Made by a program: the position numbers and the translations under genes. DNA of 63,306 nucleotides, the filler included, from Globobulimina sp. (lineage: Eukaryota), in NCBI GenBank assembly GCA_003354225.1. It is 27 parts of 27 records of this genome, joined end to end, with 100 filler letters (N's around TTAATTAATTAA, not from the genome) between each part and the next. Parts side by side here need not be neighbours in the genome. Positions count along the whole stretch, not along the records: positions 37,589 to 39,836 come from PIVH01007898.1; 26 more parts are not named here. One strand, given 5' to 3'. Each line of letters opens with the position of its first letter. Within the stretch, counting starts at the first letter, position 1. The notes under the pieces were generated by a model, which made no database searches, was not told the origin of the DNA, and saw only the letters and a program-made list of their open reading frames with translations. Shown here one piece after another: positions 4,490 to 61,623 of this stretch.

Positions 4490-4780
4490 GGCGGAGGCTA
4501 CGCTGTATTCACAGAATAAGTTTGAGAAATATTGTGTTGGATATCCATTTATGGGCTGTACTGTATTTGCCTTATTTGTAACGGTGCCATTGTATCTTTT
4601 ATNNNNNNNNNNNNNNNNNNNNNNNNNNNNNNNNNNNNNNNNNNNNTTAATTAATTAANNNNNNNNNNNNNNNNNNNNNNNNNNNNNNNNNNNNNNNNNN
4701 NNTATAATTGAATAAAATGTATACAACTTATCGACCAAGTGGAAACGCTTAATTATCTGAGAAACTCTTTTCAAATCCGG

Positions 4781-11752: not shown

Positions 11753-13922
11753 GCACAACAACATATTCCGCAGAAACAAATTAAAATCGACCCAACAAAG
11801 CCATGGTTCAAGAAAGCCATATTGCAGTTAATTAGACGCAAACATGCTGCTGCCATATCATCCCATCACTTTCCCAATGACTTGCAAAAGAAAAGACGTG
11901 CAAAACATCTGAAAAAGCGCGTTGAAAAGGAGGTAAAAAACGCTATTTTATCATATTATAAAGACCTTTTTCAAAATTGTACAACACCTAAACAATTTTG
12001 GGATGCAATTAGAAAAGTCACCAAAGGTCCCCGGCAACCTATTCCTCCATTAATTGTTGCAGAAGGCCCTCCGATCACTGATGATGTAGGAAAAGCTAAT
12101 GCTATCGCCGACGCACTGGATAAAAAATGGAATTTACTTGATGGCCCATCTCCTTCAGTCCAAGTCGCCACAGAATTTGAACCTGATTGGCTATGTGATA
12201 CTGACTTTGTCGAGAGAGAAATCTTGAAAATACCATTATCAAAGGCACCGGGCGCAGATTCTATACCAGTGAGACTTTTGCAAGAAGCTGTTAATATCGT
12301 AGCACCTGCAATAACTGCAATCATTAATCGTTGTGTGCGAGAAGGAAAGTTTCCTACAGACTGGAAACATGCCATCATCTGTCCCATTCCTAAATCTGCG
12401 GAATCAACATCTCCAATGGATTACCGACCAATTAGCCTATTGTGCTTTATGGCAAAAATTGCAGAAAAATGGTTATTGTCATTGTTGTTACCATATGTGG
12501 ACCCAAAATTAAGTGACACTCAATTTGGTTTCAGACACGGTCGCTCAACTGAGGATGCATTAGCCTATTTTGAAAAATTGGTGTGTGATGGATTCGAAAA
12601 ATGTAAGAATTCTACTCGAGTATGTACTATATTTTTTGATGTGAAAGCAGCATTTGATACAGTACCATTGTCTAGATTATTAAAATGCTTAGAGAAACAA
12701 TATAAAATACCACCATATTTACTTGCTGTATTGAAATCATTTGTTAGTAAGCGCACCCAATGTGTTAGAGTAGGCTCAGATTTGTCAAGTATTAGAAATG
12801 TACTCAGTCAGTGGTACACCACAAGGTGGTGTAATGTCAGCCGCTCTGTTTGCTGCCTATATTAATTCTGTTTTAACAACAACATTATCTCCATCTGGAA
12901 GGCTTATTGGTTTTGCAGACGATTTAGTATATGTTATGTCCTGTTGTTAATGTGACTTCAGAGGCTGGAATCCGTCGTGACCTCGAAAGTATTGCCACTG
13001 CTTTTGGTGATTTGGGTTTACAACTCAATATCACTAAAACAAAGTGTATGCTTTTTTCGGTGGCGCCCGGTGAACAGCAGTTTTCTTTTGATCCACCACT
13101 TACTATAAATGACAATGTCATTGAATGTGTGACAAGTGTTAAATACCTGGGAGTACACTTAGACAGCCGACTTACATTCGCTTCTCACACCAACAAAAAG
13201 GTGGCCGCGGCTAAGTCGGCACTAGGTGCCCTCCGTAGAACTGTCAAATGTCATCTCCCTTCAGTTATTCGAAGTGTCTATCAGTCAATTGTAAAACCCT
13301 CATTATTATATGCTTGTACAGTGACTTATCCTGTTAATATTAGTGATCGATATAGATTAGAAAGGGTGCAAAGTTATGCAGCCAAACTTGTACTTAACAA
13401 ATTTGATATATCCTACTCAGACATGTTAGCAAACCTTAAGTGGAAACCTATTGTACGTACAGTATGTGAACGACGGTGTATTACTTTTTATAAATATGTT
13501 CATGGACTACGTTTCTTACCATCTGAATGTATTCTTGTCCAAAATAATGTACGTACTACACGGCAAAGTAATTCTTATCATTCTCTGGTTGTTAGGGTAC
13601 CTGGTACAAAACTGACTCGTACTACAAAAACTTGTTTATATGTTTCTAGCTTAATTTGGAACCGTTTAAGTGAGACTGTCGTTAATATTAATGTAATGAA
13701 ATTTATTAGTTTTGTGAAGTCCAAACATTTTTCTGACGAATGTATTAATGTAATAGACTTAAGTAGAGTGTAATGGTGCATATACATACATATACTTAGT
13801 AATGCGTTCTGTGTAAGTGTTCCTCTAGTCAAAGGCTTTACGTATTACCTGCCTTGGCAGTTGTAAAGCCTGGTCTGTATGTACTTGAATATGCGGATAA
13901 AAGTTTAAACAACAACAACAAC
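11753..13922 (+). mobile_element. Non-LTR retrotransposon (LINE, CR1/L2-like group), RT region and 3' end, two frameshifts
   Basis: KAPGADSI, WKHAIICPIPK, DYRPISLL, QFGFR..RSTEDAL, FFDVKAAFDTV, SGTPQGG (after a TCAG duplication at 12804-12811), FADD at 12912-12923, VKYLGV.LD..L.F..H and LERVQ. The element ends in (AAC)5 at 13908-13922. Confidence 0.93.
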
Positions 13923-35140: not shown

Positions 35141-35332
35141 NNNNNNNNNNNNNNNNNNNNNNNNNNNNNNNNNNNNNNNNNNNNTTAATTAATTAANNNN
35201 NNNNNNNNNNNNNNNNNNNNNNNNNNNNNNNNNNNNNNNNAAATTTACAGACAGCGACTCCTCTCTTTTTAGTTTTTATATATTTAAATTCCTAAATGAA
35301 TTGTTTATGTCAAAGTGCCGAAACACTAACTT

Positions 35333-36402
35333 ACTGTCGCATTTGAATCCGAATTGAGATAAGATAAAATTATGAAAAAAATACAAAAAAGTTCTCACAT
35401 CTTTCACAAAGCGAGAGAAATGAAATAGCAATATTATTAGAGAAAAATTATGAACAAAAAGATATTGCCAAAGCACTAAACAGGTCACCGTCAACAATAT
35501 GCGAAGAAATCAAACTGAACAGTGTAAACGGAAAATATAATCCAAAGAAAGCACATGACAAAGCAAGGACAAGAAGGAAGAGTTCCAAGTATCAAGGAAT
35601 GAAGATTGTTAAAAACAAAGAATTGAAAAGTTTTGTTGAAAACAATCTTTTAAAAGACCAATCTCCAAGAGCAATATCGGGAAGATTAAAGAAAAGAGAA
35701 AAACAGCTATCCAATGTTTCAAAAGACAGTATTTGCAGATATGTTAAGAGCGTTTATGGAAGAAAGATAGAAGTACACAGGAACAAGAAAAAGAAACGAC
35801 GAAGGAAAAGACAGCCGAAGAGTGAAAAACTTAAAGACAGGACATTCATCGCCAAAAGACCCAAGGTTATCAACGATAGAATGAGAGTTGGTGACGCTGA
35901 AGCTGATTTCATTGTCTCGGGCAAATCAGGTAAGGGAATATTACTTGTAATTGTGTGTAGAAAACTAAGAATTGCATTTATTGAGCAAATACTTGATGTT
36001 AATATTAAAAATGTTCACAGAGCCTTTAAACGGATACAAAAGAGGTTCCCAGAGATGAGAACCATTACAACAGACAACGATATTCTTCTTCAAAGGCACA
36101 AAGAGTTGGAAAAGATTCTTGGTGTTAAAATATATTTTTGTGATCCGTATTCTTCTTGGCAAAAAGGAAGTGTTGAGAATACCAACGGAGAAATTCGCAA
36201 AGACATTCCCAAAAGCAGTGATATTTCTAAGTATTCAAAATACAAAATTAAAAAGATTGAAGAGAAAATTAATAATCGTTTTATGGAATGTTTAGGTTAT
36301 TTAACTCCCTCTGAAGCTCTTAAAAAGCATAGAAAAAGAAAAAGGCGCTAACGCGCTTTGTTAAAAGCTTAGAAAACTCAATTCGGTTTGAGACCGTCCA
36401 GT
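35333..36402 (+). mobile_element. IS30-family insertion sequence (bacterial)
   Basis: 26-bp imperfect IRs ACTGTCGCATTTGAATCCGAATTGAG (35333-35358) and CTCAATTCGGTTTGAGACCGTCCAGT (36377-36402), 18/26 match, flanking the transposase. Confidence 0.85.
35372..36351 (+). CDS. IS30-family transposase; ATG is one base out of frame at an A7 run
   Basis: HTH FSHLSQSERNEI...IAKALNRSPSTICEEI lies in frame upstream of ORF 35599. DDE motifs are GDAEADFI, ITTDND and PYSSWQKGSVENTNGEIR. Confidence 0.9.
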
Positions 36403-36456
36403 GGGGCAGACCTAAAACAGGCATAAAGGACAAAAGGTTTCTCTTTGTCAACAGCT

Positions 36457-37405
36457 CGTAATGGTTCAATAGCTTTGCAACACCCTAGGAGAATATATTA
36501 ACATTTAATTATTATGACATACACAATAAATCCAAACCTTCCAAAGGTTAGAATGCAAGCCGTTAGGCTTGTAAAACAAGACAAGTGGTCGATAAGGAAA
36601 GTAGCTAAGCATATGGGCTTTAACCCAAGCACAGTAAGTAGATGGTGTAAAAAAGATGCAAGTGGAGGAAGAAGACCAATAAGGACAATATCTTCGAGGC
36701 CTAACCATCATCCAAAAGCTTTAAAGAGAGAGCTTGTTAGTGAAATTATCAAACAAAGACAAAAGAATAGGAGATGTGCTGAAGTTGTTCACCAAGAACT
36801 TCTAAGAAGAAATATCGTTGTTAGCTTAAGCTCTGTTAAAAGAACCTTAGATAGATGTTGTTTAACAAAGAAGAGAAGTCCCTGGAAGAGACCTCATGAT
36901 TTTACCCCTCGTCCTGAGGCTAAAAAACAAGGTGATTTGGTTCAAATTGATACCATCCATATTATGGGACCAGATGACAAAAAGATATATGTATATACTT
37001 TGGTTGACTTACACTCTAGGTGGGCTTATGCAAAGGTTGTCTCAAGAATTAGTGCTACTAGAAGCGCAAGGTTTGCTCAAGAAGCACAGCTAGAAGCTTC
37101 ATTCCCATTTATCATGATACAAACAGATAACGGCTCTGAGTTCTCCACAAGGTTCACTCATGATCTCAAAAGGATGGAGATAGGACACAGACATTCTAGG
37201 GTTAGAAAATCCAACGATAATGCGCACGTAGAGAGGTTTAACAGAACACTACAAGAAGAATGCTTAGACAAGATTCCTCGTAAGATACTTAGGTTTAAAA
37301 AGGCTTTAAAAAATTACTTAATTTATTACAATACAGAACGACTACATATGGGAATTAATTATCAAACTCCACAAGAAGTGTTGCAAAGGTCTTGACCTTT
37401 ATACG
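36457..37405 (+). mobile_element. IS481-family insertion sequence (bacterial)
   Basis: IRs CGTAATGGTTCAATAGCTTTGCAACAC (36457-36483) and GTGTTGCAAAGGTCTTGACCTTTATACG (37378-37405). The right IR overlaps the stop codon. Confidence 0.85.
36514..37395 (+). CDS. IS481-family transposase (HTH + rve integrase core)
   Basis: SIRKVAKHMGFNPSTVSRW, SSRP.HHP, GDLVQIDT, YTLVDLHSRW, IQTDNGSEF, NAHVERFNRTLQEE and YN.ER.H.GI...TP. Confidence 0.93.
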   Translation: MTYTINPNLPKVRMQAVRLVKQDKWSIRKVAKHMGFNPSTVSRWCKKDASGGRRPIRTISSRPNHHPKALKRELVSEIIKQRQKNRRCAEVVHQELLRRNIVVSLSSVKRTLDRCCLTKKRSPWKRPHDFTPRPEAKKQGDLVQIDTIHIMGPDDKKIYVYTLVDLHSRWAYAKVVSRISATRSARFAQEAQLEASFPFIMIQTDNGSEFSTRFTHDLKRMEIGHRHSRVRKSNDNAHVERFNRTLQEECLDKIPRKILRFKKALKNYLIYYNTERLHMGINYQTPQEVLQRS

Positions 37406-37452
37406 GGGGGAGAGAATTGTTTGTGGAAAACTAAAGAAAACCTTTGGACCTG

Positions 37453-37461
37453 TGATATAAT
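37453..37461 (+). promoter_or_regulatory. Bacterial extended -10 promoter element (TGnTATAAT)
   Basis: TGATATAAT downstream of the IS481 element, pointing off the contig end. Confidence 0.45.
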
Positions 37462-37588
37462 TAAACTGTTTTTGAAAACAACAATAAANNNNNNNNNNNN
37501 NNNNNNNNNNNNNNNNNNNNNNNNNNNNNNNNTTAATTAATTAANNNNNNNNNNNNNNNNNNNNNNNNNNNNNNNNNNNNNNNNNNNN

Positions 37589-38169
37589 CGAATGCCCCTT
37601 TCCGTGTGCACTTCATTGTTGGTGGCGCTGGGAGTGAGTGCGAGGATCATATTATTATTTTTTATTCGGGGCAGGCTGTTTTTTGTTATGCAGACATACG
37701 TCCTTTGGGTGGTCTGGGCAGAATCTCCCATGGCTGTATTGGGTGTTTCCATGCTGGCTCCATATCATTGACTTGTATGTAGATATTTTATATGTATGCA
37801 TTGTTTTGTTTTTTACTGCCAAGTCATATATATATTTTGTTAACTTTGCAAGTCTCTATTTGTGTTGACAATGGCTGGGACAAATGGTGTTGAATTGTGT
37901 GAGGATTTGTATCTGGTGATTAACATTATTAATATGGATGTTGACCATAGACATAAGCATGTGAAGAATAGGTAGTTTTTGTAAGAACATATTGTGTCTA
38001 AGCAGGAAAGTGATTGTGTTGGTTTGGCTTTCGGTTTATATTTACTGTTTGCTTTCATTGCTGAGGGATGAGGCCGTTGCTTGGCAGATGATGTGGTGGT
38101 GACTGGTTTAGCTATGTTGGACCCCATGTTGCGTGACTTGACGAGTGAAGTGCGACGATGTGACGCCAT
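37589..38169 (-). CDS. Type II membrane protein, intron-containing, 3' partial
   Basis: ATG 38169, TM helix YLFFTCLCLWSTSILIMLIT, coding continues after GT-AG introns. Confidence 0.5.
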
Positions 38170-38230
38170 GACTTATGCGTTTGTTGACTAACTTGACTTA
38201 AATAGTGGAGGAAAAACATCCTTGCTAAGG

Positions 38231-39836
38231 ATGTCAAACAAACACTCCAAACGTAATGACAAATCAAAGAGAAAGAAAAAAAATAAACCACGTTCACGTA
38301 CAACTTCGAATTCTGTGATTACTCCACGAACCAAAAATAAACCTGCGAAGTTCATCTGTGAATTGTACCCAAACGCCCAAAACCTGCACATCTTTTTATC
38401 AACGCATTGCAGAATTAGCAATCTCACGCAACGCATCCAATCCTATTTTAAACCCTCAAATCCGGATGCTTCCAAACTGTATGATTTGGTGATGGAATTT
38501 TTCAACAAATCGCTAATATGCCTCACCACCTCTCCTGCTCAAATCCCGTCTATTTCGCCAGCAACAAACATGAATACCATTGTGGAGGATTTTTTGCATT
38601 GTAAATTTGCCAAAATAGGCTATGACCGCAGAGACTCTGTGTTGACAAATTCCTATTGTTTTACAAACAGGCAATATGCTGGAAGTCGCAAATATATTCC
38701 TTTATTAAATATAGATAACGTAACCATTAGCAATGCGAATGACAGTATTAACTATTTATTAACTTCCAAACAATGCAAGATATTGCACGAGTTAATCGGC
38801 GACGATATGTTATATTTTTTATTAAACACAACCACTATATTTGTGCCTGTAATGTTCAAAGTCAATCAATATTGGCAATTAATTGGAGAGCCCGCATCCG
38901 AAATATTATGGGGTCAGAGAATTAAAAAGAAACTTAACAAAATGCAGGAAACAAAAGCGAAAAAAGAGGGGAAAAAGTACAAAATATACAAGTCAAAATA
39001 TAAGAAACAGTCTCACAGCAAAGGATATTTGATGTTGAGTGATTTCAATAAAAGAAAATGTCAATGTCGACAATATGTAAAGGATGAGGGACAGAAAGCG
39101 AATGAAGCAAAAGTGAATAAGTCGGTGATTCAATGTTTTTTATGCAATAAGTTAGCGACAACCGACCATGTTTCAGGTCAGAAACATATGAAAAAAGCCA
39201 ACGTCTTTATACGGCGAATAAAAATGGAAACAGAATATCCGATTCGATGCATAATGTGTAAGGGTAAAAATGTCAGGTTGAAGACTCGAAGGGCGTGGAA
39301 CTCGCACGTCATATTTATGCATCAGAAAGATTTATTAATGTTTTATGGAAAGTCAACTGAGATCACAGAAAAGCAAAAATATAAACATGTGAGGAAACAA
39401 ATTAAGAGGACTCCAAAGGCAATGCCGACGCCATTAAAACCCAGACAGTCATTGTTAGGCAAACGGAAAGCTCACTCATTGGATTTATGGAACCAACACA
39501 AGAAATATCGACGCTTAAATCACGACTCAACCAGTATGTGTAATGTATATTTACTCTATAAATATATAAACACGTTTTATGATTGTTTAACATGATAATT
39601 CCGATGGACTTTGATTGACTGACAAAAGGTGTGGCAGATCGAAGGAATACCAATGCGATGAAGAAAGGATTGAAAAAAAGCAGTTAAGTTTGTGTTTATG
39701 TTTGTAGAAATAATATTTTTTACATTGTTTCTATATTAATTGTAGAGAATAGTACTTATATTCGCTTCCATGGCAAAACAGCACGTTCAGCTTTGAAAGC
39801 GTTCGAAGCTAAAAAGAATATAAAGAGACGAAATTT
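38231..39836 (+). CDS. TERT: Telomerase reverse transcriptase N-terminus (TEN/GQ domain) followed by two zinc fingers; 3' partial
   Basis: LYPNAQNLHIFL, FFNKSLICL, SVLTNSY and NDSINYLLTSKQCKILHELIGDDMLYFLLNTTTIFVPVMFKVNQYWQLIGEP match the TERT GQ motif (human [26 protein letters not shown]...YQVCGPP). Likely intron donor at 39534. Confidence 0.8.
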
Positions 39837-39936: not shown

Positions 39937-41660
39937 TGACTCTATCCGATATTCGTGAAGCGTACGACTGTCGCGTACGACTCAAAGATGGTCGCAATGA
40001 GTTGCTCGTCACCATCGAGATCGCGAATGCACCCAATTCCAAGCGCGAAGTAAGCAAAAATGATATTAATGGGAGCACCGTGACTCGGGGTGATATTTTC
40101 GTGCGTTTTTTTAAACGATACAAGGTTGAAAATACACATCAATTAGAAAAACAATTATTAGCTAAACTAACCACAAAAAACCTTGAACTGCACTCTGAAA
40201 CGGACCAAGCATACAATTTTGTGCATATTCCACAGAGAGAGCCCCAAACAATTACCATAATCGACGACGATGACAACAACACCACCGTACAACACAAAGA
40301 TAACACAAACACAAACAATCACAAATCGATATCACCGCAAATTATAAGTATTAAAGAAATAACGCCACCAATCAATCACAACAAAAAAAGGAAAATTGGC
40401 ATCATCAATATTTCGGGAAATAATAAATATGGAAATCCATTTTTAAACACATCACAAAATGCATGCAATACTAATAATAGCCAAAATATCAACGAATGCG
40501 AATTGACATTGCCATCCTTGACCGATCGGACATATTTAACCGATACAAATTCAAACAACTCGACGCAGAGTACTTGTTCTTCACTGTCGCAGCAAATCAG
40601 TGCGCCACCGGCAAAACGACAGAGGTTAAATAACTGGAACAATAATAATAATATTAACAACAGTGTATGCATTGATGCATTGTATACAAAAATTAAACTG
40701 TTAAGTAACAAAAATATCTTATTTCTAGCCATTTTTTATCCTTTCACCAATTATTTGCGTATTCTGCATAATCATCATAATAAATATAGCAAATTGGAGG
40801 AGATGATAAAATTACATCGTTTGCATTCGGATGGCAGTGATAATATATGTACAATGAATGGATGGTGTGACAGCATGAATAGTTTAGAAAGCGGTGTGTT
40901 GCATTTATTGACTATTTACGCGTCGATCCAACAACAAAGCCAACAATTTCGCGCTAGTATAAACTCCGAAAAAATGCAATTCGATACGCTAGAAAAGGAG
41001 AACAATATTCGTAATGAAGCACATTTACAATTGACAGCAAATGTGACTGCGTTAAGCACACAATTAACTTCTGTGGATGCACAGATTCGTAATTTAGTGA
41101 TGCAAAGACAACAAATACAACAACAATTAAATGCAACCAAACAAACTATGAATACCAATAAATTGTCGATTAATAATTATAATATGTTAAAGCAACAATA
41201 TATCAATCAAATGACGCAGAGAGTTAAAACTATCACCAATGCACAGTCGTTGTTGCCGGTGATCAAAAATATAAATAACAGATATCAGCAAACCATCGAG
41301 AAATTGAGAGAGAAGCTTGGAAAATTTGAAAGTAATTCGGGAGAATGGAACTACACCCAAATTGTGCAATGGTTTAAGCATATTGAAAATGGCAAGTTTA
41401 ATGATAATAAGTACATAAAATATATGAATCATATTATAAATGATAAGATGAATGGCGTTTCTTTGAAGAAGGATATGGATGATATGGAAATGAAATGTTA
41501 TATAAATGATGAAGATGACAGGAAATGTATAATAAACAATATTGAGCGGCTGCAAAAACAGCAAAATAATTCTACAAATTGTACAAATATTCTTGTTCAA
41601 GCGATTGAAATGTTGGAAGAAGAAGACCGATTGAAAAAAGAAACGGAACTTAAGATTTAA
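39937..41660 (+). CDS. N/Q-rich coiled-coil protein with C-terminal SAM-like domain; 5' partial
   Basis: WNYTQIVQWFKHIENGKF...MNGVSL...DRKCIINNIERL resembles the SAM-like domain at 28895-30073. Confidence 0.7.
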
Positions 41661-60960: not shown

Positions 60961-61623
60961 NNNNNNNNNNNNNNNNNNNNNNNNNNNNNNNNNNNNNNNN
61001 NNNNTTAATTAATTAANNNNNNNNNNNNNNNNNNNNNNNNNNNNNNNNNNNNNNNNNNNNATTCAAAAGCAACTGCGGATGAAAAGAAAAAAACTATGAA
61101 ATATGCACATTTCATATAAAATAAGTATTAAAGTATTCAGAGACTGAGAGTGAAAAATAAAATAAATAATGAAAAATAATTTAAAGAAAAATATTATTAT
61201 TACAATATTATTTGCCATTGTTTTCTGTTTTATTTTTCATTATTTGTTATTTTATTTGTCATTGTTTTTCAATTTATTTGTCGCTGAGATGTTGGCGTTC
61301 GACTGAGCAGACTACTAAACCGATTGAGGAAATGTTGGAGGATCCGCCGCGGAAAAAGTGAACGAGAAGAAAGAAGTGGAAATTGAGATATTTGAGTTGA
61401 ATGCCGAGAGTCCGACGTATAAAGAAAATGGGGAAACATTGCAATGTATGGAATATAAAAAAGGTGATCGGGACTGGCAAACTGGAAGCAATGGCTGTAA
61501 TATTGGCGGATTGCAAGCTTATCAAAAATATTTGCTTGTTATTAATGCAAATGTGCCATCAGTCGGTATTAAAAATATTCGCGTTTTGTTGGGAGTTTTT
61601 AACTAACTGCTTCAGTAAAACGC

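Follow-up and report, generated by a model that had tools for sequence, protein, structure and literature searches.

The window analyzed here, a stretch of 63,306 bases of DNA from the Globobulimina sp. assembly (GCA_003354225.1), carries on the plus strand of a single contig (positions 37589–39836, ~2.25 kb) the beginning of a gene whose first coding exon resembles the amino-terminal part of telomerase reverse transcriptase (TERT). The predicted product of this exon consists, in order, of a basic tail, a TEN domain, a lysine-rich linker, two altered matrin-type (zf-met/JAZ-like) Cys2-His2 zinc fingers and a bipartite motif resembling a nuclear localization signal (NLS). On balance, we take exon 1 and the two small exons behind it to be the 5′ end of a TERT gene from an AT-rich protist that is probably a foraminifer. 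The gene itself probably encodes a full-length TERT, in which the telomerase RNA-binding domain (TRBD), the reverse transcriptase (RT) domain and the C-terminal extension (CTE) would follow downstream of the contig.

The features of the locus are given below. Exon boundaries draw on contigs of four public runs (X1, X2, X6 and X7) that were aligned to contig 37589–39836, and the finger assignments draw on P0004, one of four relatives introduced further on.

38231–39533, plus strand: coding exon 1, with a length of 434 codons and one further base, defined by the open reading frame (ORF), the first ATG and a splice donor taken from the joints 39533→39629 (X6 and X7) and a loose end in X2
38231–38341, plus strand: basic N-terminal tail, residues 1–37, predicted to be disordered (predicted local distance difference test, pLDDT, 30–41), of differing length among relatives
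38333–38908, plus strand: predicted TEN-fold domain, residues 35–226, with an LIGDD..YFLL..WQLxGxP block (Foldseek, VIA-align and a search of 48,161 chains)
38894–39115, plus strand: lysine-rich linker, residues 222–295, predicted to form long helices (222–258 and 269–295, at low pLDDT)
39134–39187, plus strand: putative finger 1, C-x2-C-x7-H-x5-H, residues 302–319, aligning with the first zf-met finger of P0004 with a 5-residue deletion
39248–39322, plus strand: putative finger 2, C-x2-C-x15-H-x4-H, residues 340–364, aligning with the second zf-met finger of P0004 with a 3-residue insertion and a shorter His-His spacing
39458–39520, plus strand: bipartite NLS-like motif at the end of exon 1 (KRK, ~10 residues, KKYRR), found in all 4 sequences long enough to include it
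39534–39628, plus strand: intron 1, 95 nucleotides (nt), GT..AG, skipped in X6 and X7 contigs and retained in the DNA run X1 (record 3)
39629–39682, plus strand: exon 2, 54 nt, with a putative 3′ boundary; X7 record 21 covers 39629–39678, and the five letters between the two sides of the joint fit a GT donor at 39683
39683–39745, plus strand: intron 2, 63 nt, GT..AG, with putative boundaries placed from the joint 39678→39747 (X6 and X7) and the window sequence
39746–39836, plus strand: exon 3, whose frame has no stop before the contig end; both X6 record 18 and X7 record 21 extend beyond the contig

The N-terminal domain

The case for telomerase rests on predicted structure. Two AlphaFold models were compared with known folds, one of the TEN region only, with a mean pLDDT of 47.3, and one of the whole exon, with a mean pLDDT of 53.4, in which residues 41–125 reach 72–89 and residues 171–225 reach 62–86 around a loop (127–171) below 50. 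With the TEN-only model, ranks 1–11 of the 40 Foldseek rows are all telomerase or isolated TEN chains, none of them at E ≤ 0.001. With the whole-exon model, the first 14 of 75 rows are TERT without exception, and these chains come from human, Tetrahymena and two yeasts; the best match, human 7trd_A (E 2.2e-4; next row E 2.4), is the only row at E ≤ 0.001, and the TM-score is 0.64 when normalized to the Tetrahymena TEN crystal chain of 154 residues. When VIA-align was applied to the Foldseek list, 12 TERT entries scored Z 6.1–12.3 before the next entry at 3.8. The best of these, again 7trd_A, aligned 145 residues at Z 12.3 with a root-mean-square deviation of 3.0 and placed residues 35–225 of the model on residues 7–178 of human TERT; the matches to human and Tetrahymena TERT stand at Z 12.3, 12.1 and 11.5, with residues 15–189 of the Tetrahymena protein covered. 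A search independent of Foldseek, over 48,161 representative chains, returned TERT or TEN chains in all of its top five rows (2b2a_A, Z 11.8; the yeast chain 9swo_A, 10.0; 6d6v_A, 8.8; 5npt_A, 7.4; 7bg9_A, 6.1), and the rows that follow (Z ≤ 5.3) are matches of single long helices to the linker. Since two models, two aligners and four lineages agree over the whole domain, a chance match is unlikely, and on these models the N-terminal domain almost certainly has the TEN fold. The initial annotation had spoken of a clear TEN domain, a description that the comparison of the AlphaFold model with TEN structures bears out (Z 12.3) and that Pfam, phmmer and a profile search do not.

In primary sequence, the LIGDD motif and the block that follows it agree with what we take to be the GQ region of TERT. 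The residue directly before LxxxIGDD, a position taken to be near-invariantly Trp in other TERTs, had been singled out earlier as Cys in this protein, and Cys it is, both here and in the family at large (four of the five members, the fifth having Met).

Relatives

A word-index search of 1611 candidates found one relative, P0002 (358 residues), which is 45% identical over the N-terminal domain and belongs to the EukProt set for Bolivina argentea, a foraminifer. An exhaustive phmmer search with residues 30–232 against 1.84 billion representatives returned only P0003 (489 residues), P0002, P0004 (599 residues) and the fragment P0005 (226 residues), with TEN-domain identities of 40–57% to the window protein. 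A scan of Joint Genome Institute (JGI) metagenomes gave 80 pattern matches, 0 of them confirmed. In P0003, P0004 and P0002 the TEN domain is N-terminal, the placement it also has in TERT, starting 13–41 residues from the N-terminus.

The lengths of these proteins bear on what the gene encodes. P0003 and P0004 both end a few residues after an RRLNxDS motif, the same motif that closes exon 1 here, and both are encoded on genomic contigs (4.7 and 8.1 kb); because of these two circumstances they are probably incomplete, being ORF calls that read into an intron. The ORF of P0005, encoded on a contig of 18 kb, starts inside the TEN domain and stops before the finger region. Because its start lies inside the domain, P0005 would be an exon-sized piece, and its gene seems, from this sequence, to be split by additional introns where there is a single exon here.

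The zinc fingers

Two or more motifs of the form C-x2-C-x7..16-H-x3..6-H arise by chance with a frequency of 0.00015 in the whole exon and 0.0002 in the linker (20,000 shuffles). Canonical counterparts of the two motifs lie in P0004, whose four fingers all read C-x2-C-x12-H-x5-H and match zf-met (85.1 bits, E 2.8e-24, four stretches) and zf-C2H2_jaz (E 1.4e-21). The finger region of the window protein aligns by BLASTP with fingers 1 and 2 of P0004 (35.4 bits, E 5e-7, 19 of 65 residues identical). By this positional homology, the window fingers are read as descendants of canonical matrin-type fingers. The two fingers of P0003 are altered as well: they are spaced x2/x8/x5 and x4/x8/x5, and their best Pfam score is 19.4 bits against a cut-off of 21.2; BLASTP does not align them with the window fingers (E 3.0), and the two sets come together only in the multiple alignment. 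The finger region of P0002 has no Cys or His, so that finger number across the family runs 0, 2, 2 and 4. Where fingers are present and altered, their ligands are kept despite insertions and deletions (8 of 8 in the window protein, 8 of 8 in P0003), and all three finger-bearing sequences retain the Trp that precedes the first His in finger 2.

These results divide one of the earlier claims. The matrin/U1-like label is backed indirectly, through homology to the zf-met/JAZ fingers of P0004, and fails on the fingers' own spacing and on Pfam, where no model was passed. Relatives that combine a TEN domain with conserved Cys and His exist in P0003 (eight ligands) and P0004 (four fingers), and P0002 departs from this pattern by having no fingers.

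Linker and NLS-like motif

The linker that runs from the TEN domain to the fingers is 20% Lys and contains a GYLxLSD..KRK patch found in four of the five sequences. Beyond the fingers, the second half of the NLS-like motif reads KKYRR, KKFRR, RKYRR or NKYRR, and the region around it is alike between the window protein and relatives (BLASTP E 4e-8 and 6e-8). Passages of PMC7658794 place the NLS of TERT in the linker between TEN and TRBD. We infer from the sequence that the KRK...KKYRR motif would act as an NLS.

At the other end of the exon, X1 and X2 both have an in-frame 6-nt insertion behind 38286, within the basic N-terminal tail, a departure from the window that is either allelic or due to assembly.

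Exon structure and transcript

The exon lies in a stop-to-stop frame of 467 codons at 38192–39595 (plus strand), with its first ATG at 38231. The aligned contigs are mostly at least 99% identical to the window in X2 and ~90–99% identical in X6 and X7, which come from one sample. X1 contigs span 39391–39836 straight through both introns and are thus DNA-like; X2, X6 and X7 contigs are, from their spliced forms, taken to be RNA-derived. X2 is spliced at 37771/37845 and at 39535, with zero depth in intron bins; one of its contigs stops at 39535, where 17 loose letters follow that correspond to the first letters of exon 2. Records 7, 9/10 and 11 of X2 tile 38233–39535 without a joint (99% alike), and X6 record 18 covers 39140–39533 and then splices onward. 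No joint lies inside 38231–39533 in any of the four runs. Since spliced contigs cover exon 1 and it contains no internal joint, the fingers are present in the mature message; intron retention as the origin of the fingers was considered and is ruled out on the same grounds. We regard the fingers as very probably a genuine feature of the family that is present in the mRNA.

The gene structure proposed at the outset fares well in this comparison. The end of the exon at 39533 is a true splice donor, X6 and X7 skipping 39534–39628; the TEN domain, the lysine-rich linker and the two Cys2-His2 motifs do share one exon; both motifs lie exactly where they had been placed (39134–39187 and 39248–39322, within about 39134–39322); and the fingers are not spliced out.

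Downstream, X6 record 18 (1994 nt) extends 1457 nt past 39834 and X7 record 21 extends 245 nt. No stop interrupts the frame up to the contig end or in the first 30 letters of the X6 extension, and a transcript of at least 1457 nt beyond the contig end favors a long protein.

Comparison with known telomerases and zinc fingers

The window protein shares with the TERTs of human, Tetrahymena and yeasts the N-terminal TEN fold (Z 12.3 to 7trd_A, 11.8–12.1 to 2b2a and 10.0 to 9swn/9swo) and a basic, largely disordered linker after the TEN domain, in which the conserved basic motif would be the counterpart of the NLS that PMC7658794 places in TERT linkers. It differs from them by the folded-looking Cys2-His2 modules predicted in that linker and by having no detectable sequence similarity to solved TERTs, and it is known here from its N-terminal part. 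Set beside matrin-type/U1-like fingers (zf-met, PF12874; zf-C2H2_jaz, PF12171), the window fingers align with those of P0004, and finger 1 keeps the H-x5-H spacing; they differ in a Cys-to-His spacing of 7 and 15 instead of 12 and in a second His-His spacing of 4.

Zinc fingers (ZnFs) in TERT have a recent precedent. The initial annotation knew of no TERT with zinc fingers in its linker, a statement overtaken by PMC7619062 (2026), parts of which describe a ZnF in yeast Est2 as an unconventional zinc ribbon in the RT fingers, and report AlphaFold3-predicted TERT ZnFs in plants and insects as well as kinetoplastids, dinoflagellates and oomycetes, at varying positions that are taken to suggest independent origins. 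Those ZnFs likewise represent, as those parts present it, the lineage-specific addition of a zinc-binding module to TERT; the Est2 ZnF sits inside the RT domain, whereas the window fingers are tandem C2H2 fingers in the presumed TEN–TRBD linker. The text of PMC7619062 on ZnFs mentions neither Rhizaria nor Foraminifera. Besides that paper, we found nothing relevant in the literature on TERTs with matrin-type or C2H2 fingers, and titles, the beginnings of abstracts and the passages of PMC7658794 revealed no work on foraminiferal or rhizarian telomerase. A tandem matrin-type array in the TEN–TRBD linker thus looks new as a variant and fits an emerging pattern of ZnFs in TERTs, without amounting to a new kind of system.

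Interpretation

As a TERT, the protein would work as follows. The TEN domain would act as it does in other telomerases, keeping hold of the DNA primer and of the short hybrid with the template and offering a docking site for recruitment factors, and the NLS-like motif would serve for import. With the fingers, the protein would in addition grip an A-form helix irrespective of its sequence, be it a stem of the telomerase RNA or the template–primer hybrid, and this extra hold could replace an accessory RNA-binding subunit. Matrin-type fingers as a class bind A-form helices (double-stranded RNA, in keeping with the Pfam family title and as in JAZ-type proteins, and RNA–DNA hybrids). Their varying copy number and their loss in P0002 suggest that the role of the fingers would be accessory and not essential.

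A number of observations weigh against this interpretation. At the level of sequence, Pfam returned 0 families for the ORF protein at E ≤ 10; phmmer against PDB sequences gave six weak rows at E ≤ 10, with telomerase in none; a profile built from the five TEN-domain sequences gave three PDB rows, again with 0 telomerase; and an ESM Atlas search with residues 35–232 yielded no usable match. TEN domains are poorly conserved in sequence, however, and for this reason the absent sequence-level match to TERT weighs little. Both AlphaFold models are of low overall confidence and were built on 5-sequence alignments, and the hairpin-plus-helix that the whole-exon model places at both fingers has a low pLDDT of only 51–66. 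Neither TRBD, RT nor CTE is found on contig 37589–39836, the first two having already been noted as missing, and telomerase families are absent from the 25 of 27 Pfam families listed for the 46 window ORFs of at least 130 residues; since the window consists of 27 small contigs of a far larger assembly, the absence of TRBD and RT from it means little. Searches for a longer relative found 0 in 183 candidates (796–2270 residues), 0 among the 1.84 billion representatives and 0 in 6806 candidates (357–2000 residues), this last by a word-index search that also missed P0003 and hence overlooks true relatives. As to the transcript, one contig across two genes does not prove that they share a message. 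The fingers, too, raise doubts: their spacings (x7/x5 and x15/x4) depart from the zf-met pattern C-x2-C-x12-H-x5-H, they match no Pfam finger model at E ≤ 10, finger 1 is without the stretch that bears the conserved aromatic residue of P0004, and the absence of fingers from P0002 makes them dispensable in at least one relative.

Some of these points favor other explanations. One is that the N-terminal domain is something other than a TEN domain and that the likeness is an artefact of modeling or chance. The absence of any sequence match to a TERT, the low mean pLDDT and the single Foldseek row at E ≤ 0.001 speak for it, yet it is very improbable: both models and both aligners rank only TERT chains at the top, from four distant lineages; the matches span the whole TEN domain of human and Tetrahymena TERT; the Z-scores fall widely between the TERT group and the next rows (from a group headed by 12.3 to 3.8, and from one headed by 11.8 to 5.3); and the pLDDT of the matching core is 72–89. 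If the domain is a TEN domain, it could still belong to a stand-alone TEN–finger protein, either a TERT-derived paralogue or the N-terminal half of a split telomerase with a TEN-less catalytic subunit in trans. In keeping with such an arrangement, TEN can complement in trans in human and Tetrahymena reconstitutions. All database relatives are short (226–599 residues) and none has a TRBD or RT, and the contig is likewise without them, the matches listed for the 46 other window ORFs showing in this respect only a LINE-like RVT_1 (LINE, long interspersed nuclear element). The short lengths, however, have a ready explanation in P0003 and P0004 as probable intron read-through calls and in P0005 as an exon-sized piece; the X6 transcript runs at least 1457 nt past the contig, in a frame open to the contig end and 30 letters on; and the window is only a small part of the assembly, so that an absence from it weighs little. 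We therefore consider a stand-alone protein unlikely. Less likely still is that the telomerase of this lineage is naturally split, with TEN domain, helix-binding fingers and NLS forming a protein of their own or the head of an RT-less protein; in that event the fingers would tether it to the telomerase RNA, replacing the covalent linkage to a TEN-less catalytic subunit.

A different doubt concerns only the fingers and is compatible with a true TERT, namely that an ancestral matrin-type array is decaying in the window protein, where its remnants no longer bind zinc or nucleic acid and serve as linker only. Their irregular spacings next to the x12/x5 of all four P0004 fingers, the failure to reach a Pfam model at E ≤ 10 (with the best finger of P0003 also short of the cut-off), the loss of all Cys and His at this place in P0002 and the low confidence of the finger model speak for this reading. 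Decay sits poorly, however, with eight of eight ligands kept in both the window protein and P0003 despite indels, and with the Trp of finger 2 kept in each of the three finger-bearing sequences. X6 (~93–95% alike) points the same way: among the changes listed for codons 302–364 there are at least six base changes, four of them synonymous and two conservative (E335D and N357D), with none on a finger Cys or His, whereas in the linker that follows, which varies freely, 7 of the 11 changes listed for codons 375–419 alter the residue, although these figures exclude 42 further changes and the constraint is a hint only, one more point that tempers the case for working fingers. On this evidence the finger ligands look to be under constraint in sequence, and we hold decay to be a doubtful account of them, though the least improbable of the alternatives.

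We thus return to a TERT with fingers in its linker. If the gene is a TERT, it provides a first handle on the telomerase of its lineage, and it means that a linker usually treated as a disordered tether carries a variable finger array (0, 2, 2 and 4). It would also bear on the idea, already raised in parts of PMC7619062, that TERTs may gain built-in nucleic-acid-binding modules instead of accessory subunits. The fingers could furthermore serve as bait for the telomerase RNA of these organisms.

Neighboring genes and window context

A spliced gene on the minus strand (37589–38175) and the TERT-like gene are arranged head to head, with only ~60 bases between the minus-strand ATG near 38169 and the TERT ATG. 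The minus-strand gene has introns at 37772–37844 (CT..AC; X2, X6 and X7) and 37628–37699 (X2 only), and its contig depth is ~5–10 times that of the TERT exon.

The window as a whole is composed of 27 contigs of 2246–2251 bases, ordered by decreasing length and separated by 100-base spacers (N44-TTAATTAATTAA-N44, at 2252–2351, 4603–4702 ... 60961–61060). Because it is thus made of unrelated contigs and spacers, the adjacency of contigs in it is meaningless. Its G+C content is ~30–38%, and other contigs carry eukaryotic genes for a dynein heavy chain, Sec5 and a CAP59-type mannosyltransferase. A scan for bacterial promoters and terminators gave counts at shuffle level and is not relevant to a eukaryotic gene. 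At 39939–41657 (plus strand) there is a 573-codon open frame, rich in runs of Asn and Gln, with 0 Pfam families at E ≤ 0.001. An RVT_1 ORF at 11753–12862 (plus strand), whose frame runs off the start of its contig, has a PDB match to LINE-1 ORF2p (E 2.2e-9); this ORF was considered as a part of TERT and ruled out, the match marking it as a retrotransposon. On contig 35241–37488, an ORF at 36502–37392 (plus strand) with helix-turn-helix (HTH), IS481 leucine-zipper and rve/rve_3 domains resembles a bacterial IS481-type transposase, another window ORF matches rve and HTH_38, and a further one has a match to the bacterial DUF924; associated bacteria may be the source of some contigs in the assembly.

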